A stretch of DNA of 64,000 nt from NCBI RefSeq assembly GCF_963921235.1, contig NC_086097.1, positions 81,780,001 to 81,844,000 on the forward strand, given 5' to 3'. The stretch's first letter is position 1. The number at the start of each line of letters is the position of its first letter. The DNA is from Mobula hypostoma. Taxonomy: Eukaryota. The position numbers were made by a program, and so were the translations under genes. Positions 1,185 through 58,201 of this stretch are shown here, in pieces. Below the pieces are notes generated by a model. It worked only from the letters and a program-made list of their open reading frames with translations, did no database searches and was not told where the DNA came from.

Positions 1185-1928
1185 GCAGAGCTAGTACTCG
1201 GTGGTTCCTTAAATTGTTATAGTCAGGCGAGGTAATGGGGACAAGCTCCCACTGCATATTAAATGATCCCAATGGTGTGCACCTCAAATAGCCTCTGACA
1301 ACCAAATCCAGCTCCTGGTTTTCATGCAAACACGAGGAAATCTGCAGATGCTGGAATTTCAAGCAACACACTTAAAAGTTGCTGGTGAACGCAGCAGGCC
1401 AGGCAGCATCAATAGGAAGAGGTACAGTTGACATTTCGGGCCGAGACCCTGGTTTTCATGTGTGGTTCAGTTACTAAGCCCGGCGGAACCATTTCTACTG
1501 ACAGGAGAAGGGGCAAAAGTGGGCTAATGGTGCCTTAAGACCAATTGCTTCAGGTAGGTGGGGCTTGTCAGCCGTGGTTGGCATCTCATCTAGGAGAAGG
1601 AAAACTCTGATCTCAAACCCCCGCTGCCTTGCGGCTATACCCACTCATGCGGAAGGCTTCGGGAGTAAACCCTGAGGGAAAAATCCAGATCTGGAGTCCT
1701 TAAGACAGTCCTACATTGAGTTCAATGTTGACTGGCAACTCCTGTGATGCTGATGGTACCAAACTGTATCGGTCTCTGCCACTCTTTAGGGTTCTCATCA
1801 GATACGTAGAGAGGAGGAGCTTGGTACATGGGCAACAGCTTGCTCTCCATTTCGTACTACCCAGGCTTGCATACCCAGACAGCTAGGATGCAATATCCAT
1901 GGTCGACTCTGACTGCCGGTGGCCCTCA
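1185..1928 (+). mobile_element. Non-autonomous RTE-related retroelement (no ORF), interrupted by a PLE tail at 1327-1447
   Basis: Its 3' half (~1605-1925) recurs inverted at 4930-5250. It contains TCTAGGAGAAGGAAAACTCTGA, a motif I associate with RTE 5' UTRs. Family assignment is from recall. Confidence 0.55.
1327..1447 (-). mobile_element. PLE 3'-terminal mini-insertion, 5'-truncated inside hammerhead stem II
   Basis: Reverse complement matches the PLE tail at 18820-18908 and 6142-6260. 13-bp direct repeat CCTGGTTTTCATG at 1314-1326 and 1448-1460. Confidence 0.9.
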
Positions 1929-2616
1929 CATTATTTCAGTGATGTGATGCAAAATTAAAATGCATTTAAATATCTGGTTTCAAAAATGTTGTAAAATTGA
2001 GATAAGAAGATAATCTTCAGGGTGAAACCAAAATTCCAGCAAACCATGCCTCTGACCCCCATCCATCTGAAATAGCAGTTAGAATTAACTTGAAAAATAA
2101 TCTGTATCCTTATTTTGGGGTTCTCCTTTTGCTGTGGCTGATTTTGGAGCATGTCACTTTGTCCAATACTTTCTTCTTGTCTATTGAACTCCCCCGTGTA
2201 TTGTGTGACATCTTATGAACACAACCACTGAGTTACCACTGCTTTAGAAAGGCTTCTTTAATTTTCCCTTCAAAATGTACAACACAGAAATCCCTGGGAG
2301 TAGTACAGCAACTCTTTGAGCACATAAATCTCCCAACTATTAATAGATAAGCTATTTGATGTGCTAAGTGATAGTATCAGTCTGGTCTGCAGGCTTCCAT
2401 GGACTAAATAACTTAGCCAATGTTGTCTGATTCACACAGGCCAATTAACATAACCCAATTGTTTACACTGCATCTCTCATCAGCCTTGTGCTATGGGCCA
2501 GCAGTCTGTCCTCTATAGACAGTGCTGTTTGTTTGCAAAGCAGTCATTTTAACCTCAGTCTGATTATTGCTTACAATTTACGCTAAGAACTAAAGACTGT
2601 CTTATTTATAGCAAGA

Positions 2617-2990
2617 TGTTATATGGGGGGTGGCGTTGATGGCAGATCCAAATGCAAGACACAGACACTGATGTACTAGGAACAGGACAAGGTTTATCAA
2701 GAAAGCAAGGGGAGTCAGGAAGAAACGACACAGGACATGGACACAGGTCCTGGACGAGACAAGGACACCGGGCCTGGGCTAGGACCAAGACTAGGAAAGC
2801 GGGACCAGGATAAGGAACTTGGAACTAGGAGCCTAGGCTAGGACTCTGAGCCAGAGTCTGGACAGGGACCCGGAACCTGGGTCTTGACTTGGGCTCGGAC
2901 CTCGGATCTAGGTGAGGACAAGACGTGGCTACAGGACTGGACGTGGGTATGGGACTGGATGAGGCTGCGAGACTGGGCGAGGCTACTTCC
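2617..2990. mobile_element. Probable LTR-element remnant with degenerate GGAC(A/T)(A/G)G short tandem repeats
   Basis: Starts TGTTAT, then many ACAGGA/GGACTG/CTAGGA units. Ends abruptly at a CR1 fragment. Confidence 0.4.
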
Positions 2991-3820
2991 AATAATTCTC
3001 AAAATTAGGACTCATCAATGTCTTATACAACTTCAACATAACATCCGATCCCCTGTACTCAATACTTTGATTTATGGATTCCAATGTGCCAAAAGCTTTC
3101 TTAATGACCCTGTCTACCTGTGATGCCACTTCCAAAATATTATAGACCGGTATTCTCAGAATCCTTTATTCTACCACACTCCTCAGTGCCCTATCGTTCA
3201 CTATGTAAGACCTACTCTGGTTGGTCCCACCAAAGTGCAACACCTCACACTTATTTGCATTAAACTCCATCTGCCATTTTTCAGCCCATTTTCCCAACTG
3301 ATCCAGATCCCGCTGCAAGCCTCACTGTCCACTACACCCCCAATCTTGGTGTCATCTGCAAATCTGCAGATCCAGTTAACTACATTATCACCAAGATAGT
3401 TGATTTAGATGACAAACAACAACGGAGTCAGCACCAATCCCTGTGGCACTCCACTAGTCACAGGCTTCCAGTCAGAGAGAAAACCATCTACAATCACTCT
3501 CTGGCATTTCTCACAAAGCCAATGCCTAATCCAATTCACCCACTCATCTTGAATACCAAGCGATTGAACCATTTTGACCATGCGGGACCTTGTCAAATGC
3601 CTTACTAACGTCTGTACAGACAACATCTGCTTTATCAGCTTTCCTGGCAGCTTCCTTGAAAAACTCTATAAGACTGGCTAGACATGACCTAACATGCACA
3701 AAGCCATGCTGACTATCCTTAATCAGTCCATGTCTATCCAAATTTGCATATATCCAGTCCCTCGGAATACATTCCAATAACTTTCCCACTACTGATGTCA
3801 GGCTTCCTGGCCTGTAGTTA
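2991..3820 (-). mobile_element. CR1 LINE ORF2 (RT) fragment, decayed
   Basis: ORFs 3544-3789 (SQHGFV..RSCL..LIEFF, SKAFDKVPH) and 3405-3626 (SGVPQGLVL.PLLF) carry CR1 RT motifs. Confidence 0.92.
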
Positions 3821-4009
3821 ATTTTTATTGTTACTCTTTCTAGATATTATAATATTAGTTATATCATTTGCATGCTTACAAAACTAAATGAAACTATTTT
3901 GGCTTCATCAAATATTTGCTGGAGAAAAGCATAAGAACCAAACACTGATTGCAATGATGTTTTTTGACTACCTGTACTTGTTCCCAATATGAAGCACTGA
4001 CTACTGACT

Positions 4010-4225
4010 AGTGTGTTTCTTCTGGGTGCTCCATTTTCCTCCCACATGCCAAAGGCAGCAGGTTAGAAGGTTAATTAGTCAGTGCAAATTCCCCCTGGTG
4101 CAGGTGAGTGCAGAATCTGGGGGGGGCGGCGTAAAACAGCATTATTGTAGATGGATCTTTACTGGTTGGTTTGGACTTGTTTGGATGGCCATCCTATTCC
4201 CATACTGTATGACTCTCTGACTCTT
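4010..4225 (+). mobile_element. V-SINE (HE1-like) fragment with CR1-type tail
   Basis: Core TTTCTTCTGGGTGCTCCATTTTCCTCCCACA resembles the V-domain. Ends CTGTATGACTCT like the CR1 tails in this window. Confidence 0.7.
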
Positions 4226-4681
4226 AATTATCCAATTCTCTTCTGAGACCTATGATTGACCCAGCCTTAAGCAATACATGCCAGATTAGAATGTATGATT
4301 CTGTTTTCTTCTCCTTTTATTCCCTTTGTTTCTTCTGACAATTACCTTCAGCTTGTTCCTCTGCTTACTATTCACTCAGGAAGTAAATCCGCTTTCCTTC
4401 CAACTTAAATTATCAATTCCCTCCATGATTTTTACTATCTCAAGAAATTAACCCTTAACTTTAGTTGCCCTGAGGAAGGCAACTTCAGTTTCTCTTCAAT
4501 ATTCAAGAAGTAAATGTATTATTAAAGTACTTATATGTTACCATATAAAATGCTGAGATTCATTTTCTTACAGGCAACCCCAATAAATCCATAACCGAAA
4601 ATAACCATATTAGAATCAATGAAAGACTGCATCAACTTGGGTGTTCAACCAGTGTGCAAAAGTAACAAACTGTGCAAATTG

Positions 4682-4897
4682 AAATCAGAATCAAGTTTAA
4701 TATCACTGACATATGTCGTGAAATTTGTTGTTATGCAGCAGCAGTACATAATAAAAAAACTATTATTGTAAATCACGGTAAGTATATATATAATATTTTA
4801 AAAGTTAAGTTAAAACAATTAGTGCAAAAAAGATAAAATGAAGTAATGTTCCTGGCTTCCACGTCCATTCAAAAATCTGATGGCAAAGGGGAAGAAG
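4682..4897 (-). mobile_element. Rex1/Babar 3' UTR fragment with (TTCTGA)n tail
   Basis: Reverse complement resembles the 3' end of the Rex/Babar copy at 11950-12036. Confidence 0.7.
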
Positions 4898-4929
4898 ACA
4901 AAAGGAAAGAAATAATAATAATAAATAAC

Positions 4930-5250: not shown

Positions 5251-6131
5251 TTCAATTAATATCGAAAATACGCGATGAAGCATACTTGAAAGTGAGTCCA
5301 CAGGTTGAGGGAACATTTCAATGACGGGGCAAGTGAAGTTCAGTGAAATTAGCCCCTTTGGTTCAAGAGCCTGATGGTTGAGGGGTAATAACTGTTCCTG
5401 AACATGGTGGTGAGTTCTGAGGCTCCTGTATCTTCAGCAGTGAGAAGAGATGGTGGTGGGGGGGGGGGGCGGGGGGGGGCGTGGTCTCTGATGATAGAGT
5501 TCTTGCATTTCTGAAGAACTAAAGATCTTGGCCCTAATACTATCCCAGTTGTCTAAGCTCTTTACTCCTTCCTAATGCCCAATTCCCAGAACTGGATGCA
5601 GCAGTCCAGCAGTACCTTAGTCAAACTGGTATTTTAGTTTATTTCTACTGAACTCTTTACCTCCCATTCTTGTAAGAAAAGATCTGATTTGTAACAAAGT
5701 ATCAATCTATTACATCTGGCAATGATCAGTAAGTCACTTAAGTTATTTCTTTCGCCAGTATTTGTAGATTATTTTAATTGCTTTGGGATTGAAGTCATTC
5801 TCCACTCTTCCATCACCCATCATTTCATGCACCCAAACATCCCATTGGAAGTTGCTGAATTGTGATTTGAATTGGGAAGCATTAGTTAGTATTGATCTCT
5901 CTGAGTCAGGGGTATAGCTGGCTGCAAAAAGAAAGACTTGTAGTTCAACGATATTACCTCAAGACATCTCAAGGTACCTCATGCAGAAGCAATCAACATT
6001 GGAATTTGGGGAGTACATACCTAGTTTTACACAGTTACAATAATAATAATTTAATCTAGTAGTGTAGATGGAAGGATAAATGTTGACAGGGAAGAGAAGA
6101 CAACCGCCACCCCTTCTCTATGAACGAAGAT

Positions 6132-6262
6132 GTCCTGACGAAGGGTCTCGGCCTGAAATGTCGACTGCACCTCTTCCTACAGATGCTGCCTGGCCTGCTG
6201 CGTTCACCAGCAACTTTGATGTGTGTTGCTTGAATTTCCAGCATCTGCAGAATTCCTTTTGT
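6132..6262 (+). mobile_element. PLE 3'-terminal mini-element starting at hammerhead stem I
   Basis: GTC-CTGACGA-AGGGTCTCGGCCT-GAAATGTC-GAC followed by the conserved PLE tail. Confidence 0.9.
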
Positions 6263-7629
6263 TAACAATGGGAAAATGTAATTCATTATATTTTGCAACC
6301 CGCTTCTATGTTCTATGTGTTGTGTCATTGGAAGACATTGATCTGATCCTGTAAAAGAATAGTTGGTGTAAAACTCTCTATCAGATGTCCTAGACCTAAA
6401 ATGTCCTTACTTTTTTCTGAAGCTTCATGAAAAATTATTGTGTTTGTTTTAATCATCATGGCAACCATTACCAGGACATCAGTGAGCCAAATAAACTGCA
6501 AAAGATAGGAGGAATAAAAGGCTTCACCTTATCTGTAATGAATGTGTTTCATATTTTCTGAAGAAAACATAAATTAGATTAAGATAAAAATATAGGGACT
6601 AGGAAGATTTGTTTTCTTACAATAATGTTTCAGCCCAGGGAACTGAATGCCTTACTAGCTCAATGCCAAGTCTGAATTTTAGTCATAAACAGTTATCTAC
6701 ATACAATTTTAAGCGCAGTTGGACTATGACTTGTTTACTCCAGTTTGTAGATGATAAAATTCAAGAAGATAATTCTTATTGTCAGCTGGTTAACCACATA
6801 GTAGTAGCGGAGCAAATATATTAAACAGATGGTTTCTATTCATAAATTTTTCAAAGGGAAGGAATAATTTTCTCATAAAAGAAGACTTTCTTTCCACAGA
6901 ATGAATCCAGAATTGTGTTTTTTTTTACTGATAGGTGGTTTAATAATGAGCAAACAACACTGAAAGCTTTTACAAACCATGTGTTTCTTTAAGTGCATTG
7001 AGCTTGCTGTAATCCAGTCCTGATCTGCAGCTTTAGAAACTTGAAGAGAATCAACCTTAATTTGATGCAGATAGCATCTGATTAATTTACCTGCATAAGA
7101 TATCAATGGTAGAAGACTGTAGTGTGACTCTGAATCAGAATTCGAATCAGGCTTATTATCAAAGTCCTGTGTATACTGTGTGTTCATCTAGTCAAAAGAA
7201 ATCAGAGATAGGTTCAGGAAAAATATGACTTTTCGAGGTTTATTTCCTTTGATAGGACAGAGGTAAATGCATTTTCTTAAAATTCCTTAAATGCTAACCC
7301 TTTAAAAATAAATAAAATAAGCCCCCCAGTAAACTGTACACAATTTTGCATTAATCTGTCTACATCCAGAATAAAAGCACTCCTAAATGCCACAAGTGAA
7401 GATGTCTATGATACCTCTGAATAACAAGACTATATCTTTGAGGCTGGTGTCAACTTTCAGAATATCACCAAGTATCTGAACGAGGGATACTGTCATTAAC
7501 AAACATAGTACCCATTTTACACATGCTAACAACCAAAAGCAGCAATTAGTTTATTTGCCTGTTAATGTGGCTTTGAATACACTAGTGAAGAGGTAGCATT
7601 GCTGGTTAAAATCAGAAGAGACATTATCA

Positions 7630-8580
7630 ACACAAGAGATTCTGCAAATGCTGGAAGTCCAGAGCAACAGACACAAAATGCTGGAGGAACTCAGCAGGTC
7701 TGGCAGAATCTATGGAAATGAATATAAAGTGAACACTTAAGGCTGAGACACTTCATCGGCACTGGAAAGGAAGGGAAAAGATGCCAGAATAAGAATGTGG
7801 GGGAAGGAAGACAAATTAAAAGGTGATAGGTGAGGCCAGGTGGGTGGGGAAGGGGGAATGAAGTAAGAAGCCATCTGGCGATAGGTGGAAAAAGTAAAAG
7901 GCTGAAGGAGAAAGAATCTGTTTGGAGAGGAGAGTGGACCATGGGAGAAAGGGAAGGAGGAGGGGCACCAGGAGGAGGTGACAGGCAGATGAGGAAAAGA
8001 GTTAAGAGGCCAGAAAAAAAGGGAAGGGGAAGAGGGGAATTTACTGGAAGTTAGAGAAATCGATGGTCATGCCATCATGTTAGAGGCTACCTACATGGAA
8101 TATGAGGTGTTTATTTATTTATTTAGCAACTCAGTGAGGAGTAGACCCCTCCAGTCCTTCAAGTCATGCAGTCCCAGCAACCCCAACAAACACAATTAAC
8201 CCTAACATAATCACAGGACACTTACCTCTTCTCTTCTCCTGCTTATCATCTTCCCCTCGTGCCACTTATCATTCTCTTTTTCCCATAATGCATTCTCCCC
8301 TCCAAACAGATCCCTTTTTCTCCAACCCTTTATCTTTTCCACCTATCACCTCAGTGCTTCTTACTTCATTTTCCCCTCTCCCCCCCCCACCCACCTGGCT
8401 TCACCTATCATCTTCTAGCTTGTCTTCCTTCCCCTCCCCCCTCCCCTCACCTTCTTATTCAGACATCTTACCCCTCCTTTTCTTGTCCTAATGAAGGGCC
8501 TCAGCCCAAAACTTCGACTGTTTATTCTTTTCCATAGATTCTGCCTTGCCTGATGAGTTCCTCTGGTATTTTGTGTATGA
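7630..8580. mobile_element. Inverted pair of PLE 3' ends (minus arm ~7630-8110, plus arm ~8221-8580) with degenerate hammerheads
   Basis: Purine-rich arm then pyrimidine-rich arm, mutually complementary. The end of the GIY-YIG coding region is at ~8045-8110. A SINE-tail-like piece lies at 8110-8220. Confidence 0.8.
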
Positions 8581-8609
8581 AGAACTTACAAAGTATTTTA
8601 ATGCAGGTA

Positions 8610-9140
8610 ACAAACAAAAGAAAATCTGAAGATGCTTAAAATCTGAGCAACACACACAAAATGCTGGAGAAACTCAGCAGGCCAGGCAGTATCTATGGAA
8701 AAAAGTACAGTCGACGTTTCAGGTCGAAACCCTTCAGCAGGACTGGAGGGAAAAAAAGCTAAAGAGTAGATTTAAAAGGTGGGGGGGTGGGGTGGTGAGA
8801 GAAAAAAACAGCTGATAGGTGAAATTTGAAGGGGAAGGGATAAAGTAAAGAGTTGAGAAGTTGATTGGTGAAGGAGACAGAAGAGACCTCCCCTTCACCA
8901 TTTTCCATCCCCTTGTCCCTCCACACCTGATCTCCTTGCCCACCCATCGCCTCCCTCTGGTGCTTCTCCACCCTCCCCTTTTTCTTTCTTCCATGGCCTT
9001 CTGTCTCTTTCACTAATCAACTTCCTAGCTCTTTACTTCATCCCTCGCCCTCCAAGTTTCATCCATCACCCTTTCCCCACCTTTTAAATCTACTCCTCAG
9101 CCTTCTTTCTCCAGTTCTGCCAAAGGGTTTTGGCCCGAAA
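8610..9140. mobile_element. Inverted pair of PLE 3' ends (minus arm 8610-8888, plus arm 8889-9140)
   Basis: Arms are reverse complements over ~150 bp. The minus arm has a CTGCTGA-variant hammerhead at 8708-8745. The plus arm stops right after GAAA. Confidence 0.85.
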
Positions 9141-10035: not shown

Positions 10036-10059
10036 GTTTAACACCAACCCATCCCCCCC

Positions 10060-10612: not shown

Positions 10613-10819
10613 CAAAGAAATAAAGAGAACAAGAAGTAAAAACAACATTCAAAAATGACTTTGTTTTCATAGGCTGACCTAAGTAATGAAGATAGTATTT
10701 TCATTGTCTCTCTTTCTGCACTACTTATTTAATTTATTATTTTATACATACTTTCTACCAATTGTCTAGGCATAGCATTAGCATTGACTTATGGCATGAG
10801 AAAAGCTTCTTTCAAGAAG

Positions 10820-12036
10820 AGAGTCTACAGTGGATGCTATCTCATTGCCTCTCCATGCGGCCTTAGATCACCTGGGCAATACCTATGTCAGGATGCTGCT
10901 TATTGACTATAGCTCTGCATTTCACACCATCATTCCTACAGTCCTAATCAAAAGGCTACATAACCTGGGCCTCTGTACCTTCCTCTCCAACTGGATCCTC
11001 AACTTCCTAACCAGAAGATCAAAGTCTGTGTTGATTGGAAATAACATCTCCACCTCACTGACAATTAATACTGGTGCACCTCAGGGATGTGTGCTTAGCC
11101 CACTGCTCTACTCTCTCTACATCCATGACTGTGTGGCTAGGCACAGCTCAAGTGCCATCTCTAAATTTGCAGACAATACAACCACTGTTTGCAGAATCTC
11201 AGATGGTGATGACAATGTGCGCAGGAGGTGGTGTCACAGCAAAAAGCTTGTACTCGCCATCAGTGCAACCAAAGAGCTGATTGTGGAAATCAGAAAGGAT
11301 AAGTTAAGGGAACACATACCAATCCTCACAGAGAGATCAGAAGGGGAGAGAGAGAGCAGTTTCAAGTTCCTGGGTGTCAAGATCTCTGAGGATCTAACCT
11401 GGTCCCAACATATTCATGCAACTACAAAGAAGACAAGATAGCGGCTATATTTCATTCGGAGTTTGAGGAGATTTGGTATGTCATCTAAAACACTGGAAAA
11501 ATTCTACAGATGTACTGTGGAGAGCATTCTGACTGGTTGCATCACTGTTTGGTATGGGGGGAGGGGGACTATTGCACAGGATTGAAGTAAGCTGCAGAGA
11601 GTTGTTAAATTAGTCAGCTCCATCATGGCTACCAGTCTCCATAGCATCCAAGACATCTTCAAGGAGTGATATCTCAAAAAGGCAGCGTCCATCAATAAGG
11701 AAGCCCACCGCTCAGGACATGCCTTCTTCTCATTCCTACTGTCAGAGAGGAGATACAAAAACTTGAAAACACCCACTCACTGATTCAGGGACAGCTTCTT
11801 TCCCCTCTGCCATATGATTTCCAAATGGACACTGAACCCATAAACACTACTTCACTATTTTTTATCTCTGTTTTTGCACTACTTATTTAATTTAACGATT
11901 TAATGTATGTATGCTTACTGTAGCTTATAATTTAAAAATATATATTATATTAACATGTATTGCATTGTACTGCTGCCACAAAGTCAATAAATTTCACAAC
12001 CTATGCCAGCGATATTAAACCTGATTTTGATTCTGA
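10820..12036 (+). mobile_element. Rex1/Babar LINE, 5'-truncated, decayed RT and 3' UTR
   Basis: ORF 10830-11441 has [39 protein letters not shown] and FKFLGV. Ends in a (TTCTGA)n-like tail. Confidence 0.93.
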
Positions 12037-14343: not shown

Positions 14344-14463
14344 ACTAGCTCTTCCTTCAGTTAGTCCTGACGAAGGGTCTCGGCCCGAAACATCGACTGT
14401 ACCTCTTCCTAGAGATGCTGCCTGGCCTGCTGCGTTCACCAGCAACTTTGATGTGTGTTGCTT
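14344..14463 (+). mobile_element. PLE 3'-terminal mini-insertion carrying a hammerhead motif
   Basis: Near-identical to the tails at 6132-6230 and 18800-18908. Possible TSD GTAAAA at 14338-14343 and 14464-14469. Confidence 0.9.
14363..14398 (+). ncRNA. Minimal type I hammerhead ribozyme motif, helix III mutated (GAAACATC)
   Basis: AGTC/GACT stem I, CTGACGA core, GGGT-CTCG-GCCC stem II, GAAA. A CpG>CpA change breaks the ACGT palindrome. Confidence 0.7.
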
Positions 14464-14895
14464 GTAAAAGTAGTAATGCTTTTAATATAAATAGTTGTAT
14501 TTTCAAAATTGTATTTGCTGCTGTTACACTGTCAATGGAAAAGGGAAAAAATGAACTAGAAAATGTCATTTCTGCCCTCTTAACACTTGAGAGCTTCATG
14601 GTCAATGAATAACTTTTGAATTATTGTTAGCAATGTTACGCCCAGAAACAAAAGCATGATAAATAAACGGGTAGCATAAATCACAGTAACCAGTGGCCTA
14701 GACAAAACTGAGCACTTACTGCTCTTCAGATAAATGCACTCAACCAAATATGTTCATTGAAACACTAGCTCCAGAAAACTATTTTAGGGTCTTGGCCATT
14801 TGACCTATTATTCTATAATGCCTCATGTATTATTTGTTAAGTTATCTTTGAAAAACCTTCACATATTTCACTGCATTAGAAGTACTTTATAAATG

Positions 14896-16989: not shown

Positions 16990-19705
16990 AGGTACTTGAG
17001 TATAAGAAATGCAAGAGAACACTTAAGAAGAAAATCAGGAGGGCTAAAAGAAGGCATGAGATTGCTCTAGTAGACAAAGCAAAAGAGAATCTCAGGGGTT
17101 TCTACAGATACATTAGGAACAAAAGAATAGCAAGGGACAAAATGAGTCCTCTGGAAGGTCAGAGTGGTAATCTATGCATGGAGCTGAAAGAGATGGGGAA
17201 GTATTAAATAGATTATCCACTTCTTTTTGGATTCCAGACCTAACCAGTTCCCCTTTACCACCACTCTGCTCCATCTAGCAGAATTAGTCCTTACTCTTAA
17301 TAATTCTTCCTTTGGCTCCTCCCACTTCCTCCAAACTAAAGGTGTAGCCATGGGCACCCGTATGGGTCCCAGCTATGCCTGCCTTTTTGTTGGCTTTGTG
17401 GAAGAATCCATGTTCCAAGCCTTTACTGGTATCTGTCCCCAACTTTTCCATTGCTACATCGACGACTGCATTGGCGCGGCTTCCTGCACGCATGCTGAGC
17501 TCGTTGACTTCATTAACTTTGTCTTCAACTTTCACCCTGCCCTCAAGTTTACCTGGTCCATTTCTGACACCTCCCTCCCCTTTCTTGATCTTTCTGTCTC
17601 CATCTCTGGAGACAGCTTATCTACTGATGTCTACTATAAGCCTACAGACTCTCACAGCTACCTGGACTATTCCTCTTCCCACCCTGTCTCTTGCAAAAAT
17701 GCCATCCCCTTCTCGCAATTCCTCCGTCTCTGCCGCATCTGCTCTCAGGATGAGGCTTTTCGTTCCAGTATGAAGGAGATATCCTCTTTTTTTTAAAGAA
17801 AGGGGCTTCCTTTCCTTCACCATCAACTCTGCCCTCAAACGCATCTCTCCCATTTCACGCACATCTGCTCCCACCCCATCCTCCCGCCACCCCACTAGGA
17901 ATAGGGTTCCCCTGGTCCTCACCTACCACCCCACCAGCCTCCTCGTCCAACATATTATTCTCCATAACTTCTGCCACCTCCAACAGGATCCCACCACTAA
18001 GCACATCTTTCCCTCTCCCCTCTCTCTGCTTTCCGCAGGGATCGCTCCCTACACGACTCCCTTGTCCATTCGTCCCCCCATCCCTTCCCACCGATCTCCC
18101 TCCCGGCACTCATCCTTGAAAGTGGAACAAGTGCTACACATGCCCTTACACTTCCTCCCTTACCACCATTCAGGGCTCCTGACAGTCCTTCCAGGTGAGG
18201 CAACACTTCACCTGTGAGTCAGCTGGGGCGATACACTGTATCCAGTGCTCCCGATGTGGTCTTTTATATATTGGCGCGACCCGACGCAGGTGTTTCACTG
18301 AACGCCTATGCTCTGTCCGCCGGAGAAAACAGGATCTTCCAGTGGCCACACATTTTAATTTCACATCCCATTCCCATTCTGATATGTCTATCCATGGCCT
18401 CCTCCACTGTAAAGATGAAGCCACACTCAGGTTGGAGGAACAACATCTTATCTTCCATCTGGGTAGCCTCCAACCTGATGGCATGAATATTGACTTCTCT
18501 AACTTCTGTTAATGCCCCACTTCCCCTTCGTACCCCATCTGTTATTTATTTATTATTTTTTATTACGGTATTATTAATTTTTTTCTCTCTCCTTTTTCTG
18601 CCTCTATCCTTCTGACTATACCCCTTGCCCATCTTCTGGGTTTCTCCCCTCCCCCTTTCTTTCTCCCAAGGCCTCCCGTCCCATGATCCTCTCATATCCC
18701 TTTTGCCAATCAACTGTCCAGCTCTTGGCTCCATCCCTCCCCTCCTGTCTTCTCCTATCATTTTGGATCTCCCTCTCCCCCTCCCACTTTCAAATCTCTT
18801 ACTTTCTCTTCTTTCAGACGAAGGGTCTCGGCCCGAAACGTCGACTGTACCTCTTCCTATAGATGTTGCCTGGCCTGCTGCGTTCACCAGCAATTTTTAT
18901 GTGTGTTATTTGCATCTGTATTTGTTTAGGAGATAGTCACAGATCTATACATGTGAGGCACTGCAGCAGAAAGCTCGTGGACCCTATGTGGATTACAGAG
19001 GACGAGGTCTTTGCTCTTTCAAGTCAAATTAAAGTGAATAAATCCCCAGGGTCTAACAATGAGTTTCCTTGAATCCTGTAGGAGGCTGGTGCAGAAATTT
19101 CAGGGGCCCTAGCAGAGAAATCTAAAACATCCTTAGGCATGGGTCAGGTGCTAGAGGATTGGAGGATAGCTAATTTGCTCCATTGTTTAAGATAGGCTCT
19201 AAAAGTAAACCAGGAAATTATAGGATGGTGAACCTGACATCAGTAGTGGGAAAGTTATTGGAAAGTATTCTGAAGGACTGGTTATATAAGTATTTGGATA
19301 GACAGGGACTGATTAAGCATGGTCAACACAGCTTTGTATGTGGTAGGTTGAGCGTTTGAAAAAGTTACCAGGAAAGTTGATGAAGGCAAGGCAGTGGATG
19401 TTGTCTACATGGGCTTCAGCAAGGCCTTTGACAAGATCGCACATGGAAGGTTGATCAAGAAGTTGAAGTTGCTTGGCATTCAAGATGAGATAGTAAATTG
19501 GATTAAATATTGGCTTCAAAGAAGAAGTCCGAAGGTAGAAGCTGGTTGCTTCTCTAACTGCAGGCTTGTGACCACTGGCGTGCCACAAGGATTGGTACTA
19601 TCTCTGTTGTTGTTTGTCATCTATATCTATGATAATGTGGCAAAATGGATCTGCAAATTTGTGGATGACGCCAAGACTGGGGAAGCAGTGGACAGAGAGG
19701 AAGAC
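16990..19705 (+). mobile_element. CR1 LINE ORF2 fragment split by a PLE (segments ~16990-17214 and ~18909-19705)
   Basis: ORF 19394-19783 has DVVYMGFSKAFDK, GVPQGLVL and KFVDDAK. The flanks of the PLE rejoin as ..TTAAATAGATT|TTTGCATCTGTATTT.. (LN.FFASVF). Confidence 0.9.
17215..18908 (+). mobile_element. Penelope-like element (Neptune type): 5'-truncated RT, Cys linker, GIY-YIG endonuclease, 3' tail
   Basis: ORF 17227-17796 has QTKGVAMGTRMGPSYA, YIDD, LPFLD and YKPTD. ORF 18195-18512 has IHCIQCSRCGLLYIGAT and LQPDGMN. Frameshifts and stops are present. The hammerhead at 18815-18847 has lost its 5' stem I strand. Confidence 0.95.
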
Positions 19706-19803
19706 TTGCCTTTTACTTTCCTTTTATATTGTATCTCTATTAATTATATAGTTCCAGTAAGATCTATAAATTGTATTCTGTAAATCACATATGGTTTAAT
19801 GTC
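19706..19803 (+). repeat. ~95-bp internal copy of the LTR at 20776-21501, joining two CR1 pieces
   Basis: Matches ~21272-21370 (CCTTTTATATTGTATCTCTATTAATTA.ATAGTTCCAGTAA.ATCTATAAATTGTATTCTGTAAATC). Confidence 0.9.
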
Positions 19804-28790: not shown

Positions 28791-28959
28791 GTCTTTTGCT
28801 GTATAACCAATAACATTGATAGACGGGTAAAGACCCGGCAGCTCTGCTGCCCTGCTCTCAGCACATCCTTGCTCTGTTGAGGACCTTTGCTAGCTGGTGA
28901 AGCCAGTTAGTACCTTCTCTATTTCTCCTAAGAAATTAGTCATTGATTTTAAACATGAA

Positions 28960-30190
28960 AGGTGCCAACCCCTTCTCACAATTCCTCTGTTTCCGCTGCA
29001 TCTGCCCTCAGGATGAAGCTTTTCATTCCAAACTAAGGAGATGTCCTCCTTCTTCAAGGAAAGGGGCTTCCCTTTCTCTACCATCCACAGAGCCTGCAAC
29101 TGCCCCTCTTCCACCTGGCGCTTGTCTGCCCTCACCCTATCCTCCCACCACCCCGCCAGAGATAGGGTTCCTCTTGTTCTCACCTGTCAACCCACCAGCC
29201 TTCGTGTCCAGCACATAGTTTTCCGTAACTTCCACCACGTCCAAAGGAATCCAACCACAAAACCCATCTTTCTCTCACCACCATTATCTGCTTTCCGGAG
29301 GTATCGCTCACTATGTGACACCCTTGTCCACTCAACCCTCCCCACTGATCTTCCTCCTGGCACTTATCCTTGCAAGCAGAACAAGTGTTACGCCTGCCCC
29401 TACACCTCCTCCCTCACTACCAAATAGGGCCCCAAACAGTCCTTCCAGGTGAGGCAACACTTCACCTTTGAGTCTGTTGGGGTTATCTACTGAATCGTAT
29501 CTTCTTGGTGTGGCCTCCTGTATATTGGTAAGACCCGATGTAGATTGGGAGACCACCGCCGATCACCTACATTCCATCCACCAGAAAAAAACAGGATCTC
29601 TCAGTGGCCACCCATTTTAATTTCACTTCCTATTCCCATTCCAACGTGCCAGTCCATGGCCTCCTCTACTGTTGTGATGAGGTCACACTCAGGCTGGAGG
29701 AGCAACACCTCATATTCTGATCGGTAGCCTCCAACCTGATGGCTTGAAAATCGATTTCTCAAAATTCCAATAATGCTCCCCCCTCAACATTCCCCATCCC
29801 CCTTTCCCTCTTTCACCTTATCTCCTCACCTGCCTATTACTTCCCTTTGGTTCACATGTCCCTTCCCTTTCTTCCATGGCCTTCTGTTCTCTCCTGTCAA
29901 ATTCCCCCTTCTCCAGCCCTTTATCTCTTTCACCAATTGAATTCCCAGCTCTTTACTTCACCTCTCCCTCTCTCCTCCGGTTTCACCTATCACCTTGTGT
30001 TTCATCCTCCCCTCCCTCCACGTTTTTTACTCTGACTCCTCATCTTTTTTTTCCAGTCCTGGTGAAGGGTCTTGTCCCGAAATGTTGACTATTTACTCTT
30101 CTCCATAGATGTTACCTGGCCTACTGAGTTCCTCCAGCATTTTGTGTGTATTGCTTGGATTTCCAGCATCTGCAGATTTTCTCTTATTTC
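28960..30190 (+). mobile_element. Penelope-like element 3' portion (RT thumb, Cys linker, GIY-YIG, tail with degenerate hammerhead at 30054-30090)
   Basis: ORF 29041-29427 (MSSFFKERGFP, RVPLVLT, GTYPCKQNKCYAC). Collinear with 17700-18908. Confidence 0.93.
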
Positions 30191-30884
30191 TGTTGAATAA
30201 GAAAATTCATTCGTGAGCTGAAGTGAGTTCCAGATCAAAGCAGAAATATTGTATCACTATTAATAAAGAGAGTCTGCATGAGAAGCTGAAAAGTCTGAAG
30301 AAGATAAGTTATCTGGACCAAATGGACTATACCCACAGATTTTGAAAGAGGAAGAGATTGTGAAGGCATTAGTATGAGTCTTTCAAGAATCTCTAGATTC
30401 TGGAATGTTTCCAGAGGACAGGAAAATCACAAGTGTAACTCTACTCTTTTAAAAGAGAGGGAGGCAGAAGAGAGGAAATATTGAAAAGTTACCCTGACTT
30501 CGGTGGTTGGCAAGATGTTACAGTCCATTATTAAGAACGAGGCTTTAGGCTGCTTGGAGGCGCAGAACAAAACAGATCGGTCAGCAAGGTTTCTTAAAGG
30601 GGAAATCCTACCTGACAGATCTGTTGGAGTTCTTTGAGCAGGATTGACAAAGGAGAGTCAGTGGATGTTCTTTACATGGATCTTTGAAAGCTGTTTGACA
30701 TGGTGCCACACATGGAGCAGCTAAACAAGATGAGAGCCCATGATATTACAGTAAATATGTCGTATTGGCTGACTGACAGGAGGCAAGTAGTGGAATAAAG
30801 GAGACGTTTTCTAGTTGGCTGTCGGTGAGTAATAGTGTTTCACAGGGGTTAGTGTAGGGTCCACTACTTTTCACGTTGTACGTT

Positions 30885-41424: not shown

Positions 41425-42150
41425 ACTAACTCAGCATCCCACCTTCACACTTCTCACCAGTCCACTGTTGAATCTCCCTGGTGTTGAAGATGATGGACAA
41501 GCGCTAGAAGCTGGGATTAATTACAGATAGATCCCCACTAGTCAGTGTGGATGTGGCGGACCAAATGTCTGCTTCTATTGCTGTCTGACTCTATGTCCAT
41601 ATATATGAACTTCCATATATGGATTTGGCCCTGAAAATCTAGGCCACTGTCTAGAGATTTAGTGCAATTCACGTTTGGCTAAGTTAACTAAATACCCCTT
41701 TTCACAATAGAAAAATTGATCATTTGCACAAGATAGCACATCTAATCAGATATTTTCTTTTGAAGTCTAATTCTTTAGGGAATCAGTTTTGTAACATTTT
41801 ACATGATCCATGGTGGTTTGCTATTTTTATGAATAAGAGCATTTTGCAAAATAATGTTGAACAATTAACACCACAGGGCACAATCCGATTGTGAAATAAT
41901 AGTGGTTAGTGTTCTAGCAGAGAGTAAGAATAAAAGAAATGACAAGCACTTCTTTCACTATTTCCACTGCAAGAGAATAAAAAATAGAAACAATAATCAC
42001 ACTGAATGCTCCTAAAGGTGACATGAATCAAGAAGCAGCAAATCTATTGTGAATTCTAAACATAAAATTCTCTGTAGATGCTGGAGTCAAATCAACACAT
42101 ACAACACGCTGGAGGAACTCAGCAGGTCGGGCAGCATCTGTGGAAATGAA

Positions 42151-42188
42151 CAGTCAACGTTTCGGGCCAAGACCCTTCATCAGGACTG
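42151..42188 (-). ncRNA. Minimal type I hammerhead ribozyme, intact core
   Basis: Minus strand reads CAGTC-CTGATGA-A-GGGT.CTTG.GCCC-GAAAC-GTT-GACTG: 5-bp stem I, stem II, palindromic AACGTT. Predicted cut between 42156 and 42155. Confidence 0.85.
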
Positions 42189-43697
42189 AAGAAGGAAGGG
42201 GCAGAGGCCTATAAAGAAGGTGGGGGGAGGGTGGGAAGGAGAAGGCTGGTAGGTTCCAGGTGAAAAACCAGTAAGGGGAAAGATAAAGGGGTGGGGGAGG
42301 GGAGGCAGGGAGGGGATAGGCAGGAAAGGTGAAGAAGGAATAGGGGAAAACACAATGGGTAGTAGAAGGAGGTGGAACCAAGAGGGAGGTGATAGGCAGC
42401 TGGAGGAGGGGGCAGAGTGAAACTGGGATGGGGGAAGGGAGGGAGAGGGAATTACAGGAAGTTGGAGAATTCAATGTTCATGCCCAGGGGCTGGTGACTA
42501 CCTAGGCGGTATATGAGGTGTTGTTCCTCCAACCTGAGTTTGGCCTCATCATGCCAGTAGAGGAGGCCATGTATGGACATATCCAAATGGGAAGGTGAAG
42601 CAGATTTGAAGTGGGTGGCAACCGGGAGATCCTGTCTATTGTGGCGGACGGAGTGGAGGTGCTCAACGAAGCGGTCCCCCAATCTGCGTCGGGTTTCACC
42701 CATGTAGAGGAGGCCGCACCGGGAGCACCAGATGCAATAGATGACCCCAACAGGCTGACAAGTGAAATGTTGCCTCACCTGGAAGGACTGTTTGGGGCCC
42801 TGAATAGTGGTGAGACAGGAGGTATAGGGACAGGTGCAGCATTTAAGCTTGCAGGGATAAATGCCGGGTGGGAGATCTGTGGGGAGGGACATGTGGACTA
42901 GGGAGTTGCGGAGGGAACGATCCCTGCGGAAAGCGGTGAGGAGTAGAGAGGGAAAGATATGCTTAGTTGTGGGGTCCTGTTGAAGGTGGCGAAAGTTGCG
43001 GAGGATAATGTGCTGGATCCAGGGGATGGTGGGGTTGTAGGTGAGGACAAGGGGAACTCTGTCCCTGTTGTGGTGATGGGAGGATGGGAGGATGGGGTGA
43101 GAGCCGAAGTGCGGGAAATGGAGGAGATGCAGATGAGGGCATCATTGATGACGGCAGAAGGGAAACCACGATCCTTAAAGAAAGAGGACATTTGAGATGT
43201 CCTGGAACGGAAAGCCTCATCCTGGGAGCAGATGCGGCAGAGGCGGAGGAACTGGGAATAGGGAATAGACTTTTTGCATGTGGCAAGGTGGGAAGAGGTA
43301 TAGTCGAGTAGTTAGGAGAGTCAGTGGGCTTATAGAAGATGTGCAAACTCAGGTTGGAGGGACAACACCTCATATACCGTCTGGGTAGTCTCCAGCCCCT
43401 TGGCATGAATGTTGAATTCTCCAACTTCCTGTAATTCCCTCCCCCTCCCTTCCTCTATCCCTATTTCACTCTGTCCCCTCCCCCAGCAGCCTATCACCTC
43501 ACTCTTGGTTCTGCCTCCTTCTACTACCCATTGTGTTTTCCCCTATTCCTTCTTCACCTTTCCTGCCTATCCCCTCCCTGCTTCCTCTCCCCCACCCCTT
43601 TATCTTTCCCCTTACTGGTTTTTCACCTGGCACCTAAATGCCTTCTCCTTCCCACCCTCCCCCCACCTTCTTTGTAGGGCCCCTGCCCCTTCCTCTT

Positions 43698-43735
43698 CAG
43701 TCCTGACGAAGGGTCTCGACCTGAAACGTTGACTG
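43698..43735 (+). ncRNA. Minimal type I hammerhead ribozyme, intact core
   Basis: CAGTC-CTGACGA-A-GGGT.CTCG.ACCT-GAAAC-GTT-GACTG. Predicted cut after 43730. Confidence 0.85.
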
Positions 43736-44867
43736 TTCGTTTCCACGGATGCTGGCCGACCTGCTGAGTTCCTCCAGCGTGTTGTGCGTGTTCCTGTTGT
43801 GAATTCTTCCTTCCAGTGTGCACACTGGAGACAACAGAGGTTGTCCCAGGTCCCAGTTCACACACTGAATGTTTGCAAGGTGGAGGAAGTATAAAAGAAA
43901 TAGAATATATCAGGCTGGGCAGGTAATGATTCGACGAAGAAGAATAAGGCATGAGGCTCAGATAGATTTTAATGCAAAGTGATTAAAGAATTGTGTAGGC
44001 AAACATTTGCTACCCTTTCTAGCAGGTTTGGGAATTTTTGGAACGAGATTAGTGCTAGCCAATGGTAACAGCAAAGAATGATACTGTATAAAAGGATCTC
44101 CCCTTGATTAGTTATACCTGCTTTTTGCAAAAGCTCCCCAGTAAGGCCCAGTCGCCTGCTCAGACCCTTCAACCACTTCTTTAAAATGATGTAGCTAACA
44201 TAAAGTAGATTACTTGAAAGAGACGTAAGAGAAACACAAGACATTTAGACCACAAAGTAGAAAGGTTTTAATGAAATGTTGAAAGTGTGTGTACTGATAC
44301 ATCTAAACATGGACTATAGTTACCACCCAGCTAGCATGAATTACGAAGATAGGATTTTACCTTAAATGCTTATTAACTTTCACTTCATTTCCAGTCAGAC
44401 ATAAAATGCACAGAGTTCTGGCCCACACTCTAAAGCAATTGCAAGCAACGCAGAAAGTAAAGAGGTCAGTGTGTGCAGTGTATGTGCTGGCACAATGCTG
44501 ATGCTCTGCTTCTCTTGAATTACTGGGCACCTCTGTGTTTTGAAAAATTGTAGTAAATATGCTGTATTAGATCAATGACCAACCAGAAACAGAAGCTTCA
44601 TACTCATTAATATAGAGCAATACAGAACAAATGTACAATAACAAAGGAAGAAGAGATCAATTTAATTATGTCATTAAAATTGAGAAGCATAAAATGTATG
44701 ACTTAACAGACTTAAATAAAACTAAAAACAAAAGTCTGGTGGAATAGGGTAAAAAAAAATTGGAGCTGGTTCATTTACAAGCAAGAAAATCGCACCATGC
44801 AAATTAGACTTTTGGAGATTTAGCACAGGCTGTGTATTGTTAATCCTAATGCCATGTAGAAATTAAT

Positions 44868-45320: not shown

Positions 45321-45344
45321 CCTGAAACTCCTTGAACTCTCTTC

Positions 45345-46053: not shown

Positions 46054-47028
46054 ATCCACGCCTTTATTCTTTCTACCAAAGTGAATGGCAATGCACTTCC
46101 CTACAATATATTCAATCTGTCACTTTTTAACCCATTCTCGCATCTGCCTATGTCTTTCAGCAGACGCCCCGCCTCCTCAACACTACCTGCCCCTCCACCT
46201 ATCTTCATATTATCCACAAACCTAGCCACAAAGCCATCAATTCCTTCATCCAAATCATTGACATATAACATGAAAAGAAGCAGTCCCGACACTAACTCTT
46301 GCAAAACACCACTTGTCACCAGGAGCCAACCAGAAGAGACCCCTTTATTCCCACTCTTTGGCTCCTGCCAGTCAGTCAATCTTCTATTCATGGTAGTATC
46401 TTTCCTGCAAATACCATGGGTTCTTATCTTGTTAAGCAGCCTCATGTGCAGATCTTTGTCAAAAGCCTTCTGTAAGTCAAAATAAATAACATCCACTGAC
46501 TCTCTTTTGTCTGTGCTGCCTATTATTTCCTCAAAGAACTCCAACAGATTTATAGGGCAAGATCTCCCATTACAGAAACCAGGCTGACATTGGCCTATTT
46601 TATCTTGTGCCTCCAAGTACACTGAAACCCTAACTTTACTATTCGACTCCAACATCTATCCAACACTGAAGTCCGGCTAACTGTATTATAATTTCCTTTC
46701 TTCTGCCTCCCTCCATCCTTAAAGAGTGGAGTGGAATCTGTGATTTTCCATTCCTCCAGAACTATTTCAAAATCCAGTGATTCTTGAAAGATCATTACTA
46801 AGGCCTTCACAATCTCTTCAGTTATATTTTTCAGAACACTGGGGTGTAGTCCATATGGTCCAGGTGACTTACCTACTTTCAAACTTCTCAGTTTCCAAAG
46901 CACTTGCTCCTTAGTCATTGACACTCACTTCTGCCCTCTGACACTTATAATTTTCTGGCATACTGATAGTACTTTCCACTGTGAAGTTTGATGTAAAATA
47001 CTTTGCCCCCCCATTACTACCACTCCAG

Positions 47029-47593
47029 GAGTTGTGGGATCTCCCAGTGAGCACCTATTTTAATTCCACTTCCCATTCCCATTCCGACATGTCAGTCCAT
47101 GGCCTCCCCTACTGTCACGATGAGGCCACACTCAGGTTGGAGGAGCAACACCTTATATTCCGGCTGGGTAGTCTCCAACCTGATGGCATAAACATTGATT
47201 TCTCAAACTTCCGGTAATAATTCCCCCCACCCCCCTTCAACTTTCCCCATTCCCATTTCCCCCTCTCACCTTATCTTCTTAACTGCATATCACCTCCCTC
47301 TGGTGCTCCTCCCCCCTTTACTTTCTTCCATGGGCTTCTGTCCTCTCCTATCAGAATCCCCCTTCTCTACTCCTTTATCTCTTTCACCCATTGACTTCCC
47401 AGCTCTTTACTTCAGCGCTCTCCCCCTACCAGTTTTACCTATCAGCTTGTGTTTCTTCCTCCCATCTCCCTACATTCTTACTCTGACTCTTCTTTTCCCC
47501 CAATCCTGATGAAGGGTCTCAGCCTGAAACCAACTGTACTCTTTTCCATAGATGCTGTCCAGCCTGCTGTGTTCCTCTAGCATTTTGTGTGTG
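47029..47593 (+). mobile_element. PLE 3' fragment (GIY-YIG C-terminus and tail with damaged hammerhead at 47502-47536)
   Basis: ORF 46981-47217 (RLEEQHLIFRLGSLQPDGINIDF). 15-bp TSD with 2 mismatches at 47014-47028 and 47594-47608. Confidence 0.92.
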
Positions 47594-48312
47594 TTACTAT
47601 CTCTCCAGTGTCATTTTCCAGCTGTGCAATATCCACTCTTGTCTCTCTTCTACTCTTTATATATCTGAAAAAAACCTTTTTGTGTCCTCTTTAATATTAC
47701 TGGCTAGCTTAGCTTCATATTTCAGTTTTTCTACGTGCCTTCCGTTGACTTTTAAAAGCTGGCAAATCTTCTGCTTTCCCACTTATTTTTGTTACATCAT
47801 ATGCTCTCAGTTTTTCTTTTATGCTGTCTTTGACTTCCCTTGTTTCTTCCTCTCTTTAGAATACTTCTTCATCTTTGGGATGTATCTATTCTCTGCCTTC
47901 CTAATTTCCCCCTAGAAACTCCAGCATTTGCTGTCCTGCTATCATCCCTGCTAGTGTCTCCATTCAATCAACTTTGGCCAGCTCCTCTATCAGGCCTCTA
48001 ATTCCCTTTACTCTGCTGTAATGCTGATACATCTGATTTAACTTCTCCTTCTCAAACTGCAGGGTGAATTCTACCATATTATGATTACTTCCTCCTGAGG
48101 GTTCCTTTACCTAAAGCTCCGTAATCAATACTGGGTCATACATAACACCCAGTCCAGAATTGCTCTTTCCCCAGTGGACACAACCAGAAGCTGCACTTAA
48201 AAAAAAAACATCTTGTAGACATTCTACAAACTCCTTCTCTTGGGATCCAGCACCAACCTGATTTTTCCAATCTACCTGCATATTGAAATCTCCCATGATC
48301 ATTGTAACATTG

Positions 48313-56731: not shown

Positions 56732-56989
56732 CAGTGTTTTAATGGTACAGACAGAGACCTGTACTCATGCTTACATTACCTAGTGGCTCTCCGTGAGAAA
56801 GGATCCAACACTCTGGACTGTGAATCACCCCACAATTTCTTCACTCTGATTTCCATGAAAACAACATCCAAATCTCCCTGAGATTTTCATGTTTTTGCTG
56901 AATTTACACATTAATTATTTCCTCAACATACCACAGAATGTTATTGTTAACGTTGGTCATTTGTAACAATGTTCCCCTCTCAATGACAT

Positions 56990-57285
56990 AGTAAAAACAC
57001 AGAGGAGACTGGGCCTGCAGTCCATCGCTCAAAGGCATCAATATCACTCTGTTCTCTCCACATTCCCATTAATCCCTGCCAGCTCATGACGCTCGTTTGT
57101 ACTTAAGGGGAAGTTTGCAACGGCCTAGCAATCTTCACACTTTGAAATGTGAGAGGATACACGTGTAGCCGCAGAGAAAACGTGCAGACTCTGCACGGAC
57201 AGCAGCAGCTGCTGCAGTCACAATTGAACCCAGGTACTGGTACTGTGAGGCAGCAGATCTCCTGGTTCTGCCACTGTGCTGCCCC
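56990..57285 (-). mobile_element. Degenerate V-SINE
   Basis: Minus strand GGGCAGCACAGTGG..GCTGCCTCACAG..CCTGGGTTCAATT..CTGTCCGTGCAGAGTCTGCACGTT head. Confidence 0.65.
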
Positions 57286-57419
57286 AGTGATGCCTAATTT
57301 CCAGTACAACCCTACCATAAACCGGAGCAGAAGCAAGTCATCTTTAATATGCTAAATGGCGATTCGCCCTCCATTTGAAAATTATGAGTGTGTATAAGAG
57401 TATGAGTATGGGGTTACAT

Positions 57420-57700
57420 TAATTCAAAGTTCACAGTACGCTTATTATCTAAGTATGTATACTTCATACAACCTTGAGATTTGTCTCCTTATAGGCCGCT
57501 ACAAAACAAAGATATCCAGTAGAACCTATTGAAACAAATGGAGACCATCAAACACTCAACATGCAGAGAAAACAAACCGCGCAAACAATAAAAGTAATCA
57601 AATAGCATTTAGAACTGAAGTTCACAAAAGTGAGTCCCCACGGTGGTAGTTGCAGGCCACAGCCACAGTTCAGTGCAGAGGTGAGTAAACCTTGTCGAGC
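57420..57700 (-). mobile_element. Rex/Babar-tailed non-autonomous fragment
   Basis: TTCAAAGTTCA..TTATTATC tail as at 13278 and ~4500. Confidence 0.65.
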
Positions 57701-58061
57701 GGCGATTGAACCAGCCCCATCAGGTTGTGAACTGTCTTTTTGGAGATCCCTATAACTTCAAATTCAACATTTTAATTTTTGAATCTTTTTTATTCAATCC
57801 TCTTTTTGTTTCATTGCAACCTTTCAAATCCTTCCTTATTTTGCTTCCCACTTTGACACTGATTTCGCTTTTTAGCTACTCTTTCTGCAATGCCATCGGA
57901 TAAAATGATACAATTATTGTCCTGTTCTTCGCCAAAGCCCCAACATCTCTGCTGCCTTTGCTATACCAACAACAGCTCACAGTTCCACTAACTTTTATGC
58001 GGAAAGAAAGTTGTAAACTCATAAATTAGGCAAGTCTAAAGAAACTGCTATGACATGGATC

Positions 58062-58201
58062 AGAGTATAGTCGACTGCTGAAGGGTCTTGGCCCAAAACA
58101 CCGACTGTACTTTTTTCCTAGGTGCTGCCTGGCCTGCTGAGTTCCTCCAGCATTTTGTGTGTGTTGCTCGGATTTCCAGCATCTGCATATTTTCTCTTAT
58201 T
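58062..58201 (+). mobile_element. PLE 3'-terminal mini-insertion with 13-nt 5' inversion
   Basis: Perfect 13-bp TSD TATGACATGGATC (58049-58061, 58202-58214). CTGCTGA-variant hammerhead remnant plus tail. Confidence 0.92.

Follow-up and report, generated by a model that had tools for sequence, protein, structure and literature searches.

Results

Hammerhead motifs in the window

A 64-kb stretch of the Mobula hypostoma genome (contig NC_086097.1, positions 81,780,001 to 81,844,000; here called the window and numbered from its first base) carries 13 copies of a motif that is, by all appearances, the terminal-repeat hammerhead ribozyme of a Neptune-type Penelope-like element (PLE). An earlier note on this DNA had reported about 13 copies, and exactly the 13 it lists, on the same strands, were recovered both by an ungapped scan (the 14363 copy as reference; cut-off at least 22 of 38 letters) and by a profile search (model built from ten window copies). 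The same profile found nothing in 1.33 Mb of reversed genome sequence. The motifs start at 1461 on the minus strand (where only 1450-1426 is present), 6131+, 7763-, 8484+, 8744-, 9113+, 14363+, 18811+, 30055+, 42187-, 43699+, 47502+ and 58071+. They fall into a young family A and an older family B, which share one 38-nt consensus except at N7 and 11.1. The core, CUGANGA ... GAAA ... UH, is present in both consensuses and incomplete in 9 of the 13 copies; all 11 core bases are retained at 6131, 14363, 42187 and 43699. A full minimal-hammerhead descriptor was passed by two copies, 42187- and 43699+, one on each strand and each with U at the cleavage position. The Rfam hammerhead models, named in the earlier note as a check, matched no window copy at E≤5; the Rfam families have the same core letters, and the form found here is minimal, without helix III and loop contacts.

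GIY-YIG coding remnants accompany six of the 13 motifs, each time with the motif 267-301 nt past the end of the open reading frame (ORF); the remnant at the 7763 copy is weak (E 0.004). The earlier placement of the motif 3' of the GIY-YIG ORF is right for these six and incomplete for full-length elements, which carry the motif on both sides. Because three pairs of copies (7763/8484, 8744/9113 and 42187/43699) are back-to-back arms, the 13 copies amount to about 10 insertions (Table 1). Target-site duplications of 11-15 bp surround 4 of the 10 units tested: 1326-1450, 42071-43797, 47026-47600 (two mismatches) and 58062-58203. Among the two-armed units only 42071-43797 has a clear duplication (11/11 nt); at 8611-9140 the candidate is weak, a 9-mer rich in A, and 7630-8585 yielded none. 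Between the 7763/8484 arms lie ~100 nt unrelated to the element (8112-8215), possibly a later insertion or filler. At 8440-8705 two separate two-armed units stand tail to tail and form a 160-nt inverted repeat with a weak MIR2606 score (44.8 bits against a gathering threshold of 139.7). That match, at 8534-8696, comes from two neighbouring tails facing each other.

The parent element

A search of the Mobula genome (3.48 Gb, 200 contigs) with a reverse transcriptase (RT) fragment returned 58,891 first-look candidates with open frames of at most 1130 aa, the longest of which was rejected as a chance fusion with a neighbouring long interspersed nuclear element (LINE). Two same-strand motifs 3390-3728 nt apart were present in 9 of 20 targeted 10-kb loci, and 8 of these 9 had an ATG at +169/170 from the motif start. 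The full-length order is hammerhead, a 138-nt leader after the predicted cut, a 1016-aa RT/GIY-YIG ORF, a ~300-nt pyrimidine-rich untranslated region (UTR), a second hammerhead and a tail. In a typical locus, L046, the 5' repeat begins inside the end of the endonuclease and continues through ~300 nt of pyrimidine-rich UTR to the hammerhead, so that the element is a partial tandem; its ATG lies 170 nt downstream of where the motif starts and 138 nt downstream of the predicted cut. The 1016-aa product matches RVT_1 (E 2e-5) and GIY-YIG (E 0.0023), neither at the Pfam cut-off, with YIDD at residue 662 and the endonuclease starting at 919. The 5' repeats vary in length among the partial tandems. 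In nine full-length elements whose 5' and 3' repeats were compared, several 5' repeats are shorter than the span used, and the copies are much alike. Partial-tandem pseudo-long terminal repeats (pseudo-LTRs), an inverted 5'-truncated partner and tail ends matching a 30-40 bp tail are all traits of EN+ PLEs found here, as is a single ORF with an RT and a GIY-YIG domain at its C-terminus.

The L046 ORF has 1035 homologues, the closest named ones from the shark Chiloscyllium punctatum (71% and 67%). It is longer than most listed homologues (~560-1000 aa) because of a long low-complexity stretch rich in Pro, Ser and Thr at residues ~170-290, ahead of the RT. A C-x4-C-x2-C linker precedes GIY-YIG, and the CX2-5CxxC form is present in 112 of 116 scorable homologues. 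According to PMC8557442 this linker characterises Neptune and Nematis, and Penelope/Poseidon elements lack it; assignment to Poseidon (Penelope/Poseidon clade) is ruled out by it. The architecture, together with the core and the covarying helices described below, agrees with the earlier identification of the motifs as minimal type I hammerheads of PLE termini.

Two loci sampled elsewhere stand apart. L088 holds, on the minus strand, an intact minimal hammerhead of another sequence family, which points to other PLE families at lower copy number. In L095, two near-identical damaged family B copies (8166 and 8491) lie 325 nt apart on the same strand; this pair is a local tandem duplication on a small scale, such as has been proposed as the seed of retrozymes.

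Abundance across the genome

The genome-wide pattern search proposed in the earlier note, run with a core-intact pattern covering both subfamilies, gave 62,175 exact matches and none in the reversed control; one exact 34-base pattern gave 6,605. For density estimates, 133 stretches of 10 kb (1.33 Mb) were taken at round coordinates on large contigs, evenly spread and not formally random. The profile matched this sample 271 times, or 0.204 per kb against 0.203 in the window, so the window's motif density is typical of the genome and the earlier figure of about one copy per 5 kb stands. Extrapolation from the sample yields ~708,000 remnants genome-wide (bootstrap 588,000-826,000), tail-only remnants included; the ribozyme region was covered by 98 of the 149 matches in the first 73 stretches. 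Element-matching sequence makes up 5.3% of the sample.

Intact motifs are a minority. The descriptor was passed by 41 of the 271 sampled matches (one of them from another family), which extrapolates to ~107,000 (76,000-141,000); such small-count extrapolation is loose, as the 34-mer was extrapolated to 13,000 against 6,605 counted. The intact-motif density of ~18-31 per Mb, about one per 30-55 kb, is several times that of the axolotl, where 126,247 type I hammerheads are reported (PMC7229834), in 28 Gb, or ~4.5 per Mb.

Conservation between families and decay of copies

Relatives were collected as 80 metagenome loci encoding homologues with 33-63% identity in the best segment. A core search by sequence only found 19 sense-strand matches in them, of which 18 are distinct; the three control orientations together gave 4. 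Helix I closed with at least 3 bp in 15 of the 18 distinct matches (shuffled partners: mean 2.9, maximum 9 in 5000 shuffles), and stem II formed in 17. When 14 of the relatives' motifs, pre-selected for pairing, were aligned with three from the Mobula genome, 13 columns were invariant and 8 of 10 pairs changed on both sides, including all 5 of helix I. The 10.1/11.1 pair is G-C in 14 of the 17 motifs and G-U in 3, with a 5' bulged base before helix II; the palindromic 15.2/16.2 pair is C-G in 15 and U-G in 2, with no helix III loop. The fold is conserved across distant families, with an invariant core and covarying helices.

Once a copy is inserted, its core changes about as fast as the flanking tail, neither spared nor destroyed by preference. 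Among copies spanning the whole region, to which the test was confined, non-CpG mismatches numbered 14/626 in the core and 76/2515 in the tail of family A (63 of 87 copies; p 0.35), and 67/580 and 262/2420 in family B (59 of 148 copies; p 0.61); CpG sites were changed in 31-44% in family B. The earlier observation that stem II substitutions keep pairing is correct for the window, where 2 of 52 pairs are broken in the ungapped register. As evidence of selection it fails: in the 59 older copies of the genome sample 39 changes kept and 34 broke pairing, against 40.9 and 35.9 expected if the two sides mutate independently, and covariation among copies was dropped as a sign of selection. The kept pairing matches neutral expectation because C-to-T changes in a G/C stem yield G-U pairs.

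A variant of family A with U for C at 11.1, giving G-U, was seen in 38 of 63 young copies (L031-L043, L064-L183). These copies look younger (median divergence 1.3% against 2.6%, p 0.003), in a comparison biased by a consensus that the U-11.1 group dominates. A possibly weaker ribozyme, with G-U at 10.1/11.1, has spread more than the canonical G-C one.

Ends of young insertions

Insertion ends were mapped in 86 family-A-like sample copies with at least 85% identity that reach +70, two of which may be family B; copies less than 60 bases from a stretch edge were excluded, and positions are numbered from the first base of helix I. The 3' ends form two groups, 39 at +94 to +105 (16 at +96) and 41 at +126 to +137 (18 at +133), so that the two end points are 37 nt apart, at 64 and 101 nt downstream of the predicted cut. 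An inverted arm adjoins 45 of the copies. At the 5' side, 25 of the 86 (~29%) end at -5 to +11, 14 of them at 0 to +2, with a further 7 at +12 to +27 and 6 at +36 to +60. None of the 86 ends at +28 to +35, around the predicted cut between +31 and +32. The concentration of 5' ends at the outer edge of the ribozyme and their absence from the cut site suggest that uncut RNA is the template.

In both families a pyrimidine tract and AG stand ahead of the motif. The sequence YYANWYY, which we take to be initiator-like, is likewise present in both, its A at position 0. In Drosophila virilis, the terminal repeat of Penelope is reported to contain an internal promoter (PMC2377424). Given the initiator-like sequence and that promoter, our preferred reading of the 5' pile-up is a transcription start, which would lie at the first base of helix I.

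Predicted folding and partners

Four of five 40-mers were predicted to fold into a rod that pairs core bases with the cleavage triplet; shuffled sequences give similar fold energies (z 0 to -1.4), and folding by itself therefore carries no weight as evidence. Of the 41 core-intact sampled copies, 12 have an opposite-strand partner within 4 kb and none has one on the same strand. In PMC4209133, a single minimal hammerhead ribozyme (min-HHR) does not cleave in vitro and dimers have low activity, and eight of nine Xenopus dimers are reported not to cleave (bioRxiv 10.64898/2026.07.22.740005). For a PLE of the lizard Anolis, PMC11167929 reports that the ribozyme cleaves once its protein is added, that ribozyme mutants still insert and that no RNA reads end at the cut. 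The solo copies are likely silent relics that lack the partner they are predicted to need.

Features of the window

The units and motifs of the window are collected in Table 1. LINE remnants at 10800-11441, 19352-19783, 22144-22755 and 31127-31936 (RVT_1 matches and one PF09004 match) are unrelated to the hammerhead element.

Table 1. Hammerhead motifs and element copies in the window
Feature	Position	Strand	Remarks
Hammerhead, 5'-truncated, begins at stem II, first core half absent; young family A	1426..1450	-	Insertion 1326-1450, 13-bp target-site duplication
Core-intact motif, helix I 3 bp, U-G at 15.2/16.2	6131..6166	+	
Mini-copy holding the 6131 motif; starts at 5' edge of helix I	6132-6263	+	98% identity to young full-length element
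Damaged motif, 3 core changes, older family B	7728..7763	-	Arm ~7639-8111, weak ORF-end remnant
Damaged motif, 2 core changes, family B	8484..8519	+	Arm opposite 7763 copy
Motif with 1 core change, family B	8709..8744	-	Arm ~8611-8868
Damaged motif ending after GAAA, without tail	9113..9140	+	Arm opposite 8744 copy
Core-intact motif, C-A mismatch at palindromic 15.2/16.2 pair	14363..14398	+	Mini-copy 14349-14464, family A
Family A element, 5'-truncated	17220..18915	+	RT and GIY-YIG remnants 17215-18506 (82-86% aa identity to L046), 3' UTR, motif, tail
Motif of 17220..18915 element	18815-18846	+	Without 5' arm of helix I
Family B element, 5'-truncated	28958..30197	+	ORF remnants 28958-29770, motif 30055-30090 (1 core change), tail
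Long arm, two-armed insertion	42071..43339	-	ORF remnant, GIY-YIG match (Pfam E 0.00095), tail
Fully intact minimal hammerhead, GUU site, in long arm	42152-42187	-	
Short inverted arm, 42071-43797 insertion	43344..43797	+	ORF end; 11-bp target-site duplication around both arms
Fully intact minimal hammerhead, GUU site, G-U at 10.1/11.1, in short arm	43699-43734	+	
Family B element, 5'-truncated	47026..47600	+	GIY-YIG remnant 47026-47205
Motif of 47026..47600 element, cleavage triplet lost	47502-47537	+	
Mini-copy, family B	58062..58203	+	Damaged motif 58075-58106 (3 core changes), 13-bp target-site duplication

Discussion

The motifs are most probably the terminal-repeat hammerhead of a Neptune-type PLE, scattered as mostly truncated, neutrally decaying and likely catalytically silent insertions. 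In the mechanism we propose, the element protein would nick target DNA and begin reverse transcription at two internal points, as in the anole PLE, so that every copy, however short, would gain first the tail and then the hammerhead. The template would likely be uncut RNA with its 5' end at the first base of helix I, possibly the transcription start. Initiation at the leader would give mini-copies of 96 or 133 nt, and priming on both DNA ends would give two-armed units. The monomer RNA is predicted to adopt the inactive rod, and its cleavage would depend on a second hammerhead in the same RNA, as in full-length or tandem elements, or on help from the protein; the fold would be under selection only in actively transposing lineages. 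High abundance without selection on the copies would follow from reverse transcription starting where each copy takes up the tail and the hammerhead. The large copy number is thus likely in the main a by-product of where reverse transcription starts. The earlier note had read one copy per 5 kb as a very large ribozyme load; only the minority of sampled matches is intact, none of these has a same-strand partner within 4 kb, the decay of copies is neutral, and copy number cannot be equated with catalytic load.

Several points weigh against this interpretation. The -5 to +11 bin, which holds 25 of the 47 5' ends within -100 to +60 (p 5.5e-13), was chosen post hoc with the data already seen. Genome-wide junction patterns gave 979 matches at +2, 215 at +32 and 237 at the control +36, each against ~120,000-140,000 anchors, and these counts are only roughly comparable, as the patterns capture junctions at different rates and are not equally family-specific, the one at +2 also matching family B. 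We attribute the +32 junctions to microhomology because 9 of 10 inspected loci join the inverted arm through four bases common to both helix I arms and because an inverted-arm prefix stands in 74 of 100 listed matches (CAG 62, CGA 12; counted by eye); cleaved RNA may contribute to such inverted-arm junctions. Partner distances were taken inside 10-kb stretches, so edge cases were missed. Cleavage and RNA ends are here predictions from the DNA letters alone, and Neptune is preferred over Nematis on vertebrate distribution, not on a tree. Finally, snap-back of the cDNA could also give the 5' pile-up, and this is the main rival to a transcription start.

Under snap-back or microhomology, the new DNA end, after both helix I arms had been reverse-transcribed, would fold back on or anneal to the partner arm and terminate there. 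The inverted arms next to about half of the young copies and the inverted-arm prefixes at +32 fit such a process, and we regard it as a real possibility, if the lesser one. Against it stand the many copies starting at 0 to +2 that border ordinary flank, carry a target-site duplication and lack an inverted arm, as do 6 of 14 sampled copies and 5 of 30 inspected genome-wide +2 loci; older family B copies, too, start at the same point in non-pyrimidine flanks. The same pile-up would mark spliced RNAs if the pyrimidine tract and AG at the 5' edge of helix I served as a splice acceptor, and the D. virilis Penelope intron indeed has its 3' end where helix I begins (PMC4209133; intron in PMC2377424). 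We think this improbable: no recurrent upstream exon was found in the 14 sampled 0 to +2 copies, nor in the 30 inspected loci (with a pattern that leaves out exons ending in G); no GT..AG joint ended there among 15 listed of 33 (four contig sets); and no AG precedes helix I in 15 distant relatives. Splicing of a host exon onto the AG was not seen among the inspected junction loci. A transcription start at helix I stays the preferred reading of the pile-up.

Two further explanations give cleavage a larger part. In one, paired hammerheads would excise a 3.5-kb unit RNA whose ends are then ligated into a circle; reverse transcription begun at the leader would cross the junction and continue into a second round, producing the partial tandems, a model proposed in PMC4209133. 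With the cut site 138 nt upstream of the ATG, double cleavage would free the whole ORF; partial tandems with variable 5' repeats do exist; and a ligated circle leaves no junction at the cut, compatible with the missing +32 ends. We nonetheless consider it unlikely, as the pile-up at 0 to +11 goes unexplained without a linear end or a stop there, and unprocessed RNA is reported as the dominant in vitro substrate of the anole element (PMC11167929). In the other, tens of thousands of intact solo copies would cut host transcripts, through pairing with distant copies or other RNAs, or with the element protein. The intact counts, both by exact pattern and by descriptor, and the protein-assisted cleavage of the anole ribozyme speak for it, and element sequence occurs in sequencing runs guessed to be RNA, none of them recorded as RNA. 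Set against the lack of same-strand partners within 4 kb, the neutral fate of the core once inserted, and the inert monomers and weak or inert dimers of other species, such an active load seems very doubtful. Silent, neutrally decaying insertions of a PLE hammerhead remain our favored explanation.

The kind of sequence described here is already published; only its scale and the junction pattern add anything. Min-HHRs in the pseudo-LTRs of metazoan PLEs, with solo copies dispersed in massive numbers among them, have been known since 2014 (Cervera and De la Pena 2014, PMC4209133) and are reported for Neptune elements of fish. Shared with them are the type I core, the bulged base before stem II, G10.1, a short helix I, the palindromic 15.2/16.2 pair without loop 3, the presence in both terminal repeats and the preponderance of solo truncated copies. 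The 62,175 exact core-intact copies here compare with ~4,000 in coelacanth and ~9,000 in Xenopus tropicalis; one near-invariant motif dominates here, whereas many variable families are described there, and the commoner young variant here has G-U at 10.1/11.1. Shark terms were absent from one of that paper's supplement files. With the Poseidon element PAc of Anolis carolinensis (Frangieh et al. 2024, PMC11167929), the Mobula element shares two internal reverse-transcription starts that define the tail, priming on both strands and no sign of cleaved RNA as template. It differs in that its ORF begins 138 nt past the cut site, whereas the PAc ORF begins in stem II, in its Neptune-type linker and in being known from sequence alone. 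Animal non-LTR retrozymes (PMC7229834; bioRxiv 10.64898/2026.07.22.740005) also comprise very many type I hammerheads with an origin in, or mobilisation by, PLE terminal repeats; they are short head-to-tail tandem arrays expressed as circles, whereas the copies here are dispersed monomers or back-to-back arms. A retrozyme was rejected on the absence of same-strand partners in 1.33 Mb, with no search aimed at rare arrays elsewhere in the genome. A literature search that left most subscription papers and Repbase outside found nothing specific on this element or on ribozyme load in sharks and rays, and, with most subscription papers outside, none on PLE 5' ends at the ribozyme.

For the family, tens of thousands of young insertions bring statistical power to the question of what role PLE hammerheads play. 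These insertions record where reverse transcription starts and stops, and they point to uncut RNA ending at the 5' edge of the ribozyme. The copy numbers permit a direct test of selection, by comparing the strand bias of intact and broken intronic copies. In the near-intact full-length elements the ribozyme lies wholly outside the ORF and could be mutated without changing the protein, which is impossible in the anole element. As a long shot, 60,000-100,000 intact hammerheads might mean that long host pre-mRNAs carry several sense copies, activated by the element protein or by long-range pairing, and that the RNA starts at the first base of the ribozyme, which would then be the cap-proximal structure of the uncut template. 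If cutting of host transcripts were true, bursts of element expression would cut them genome-wide.

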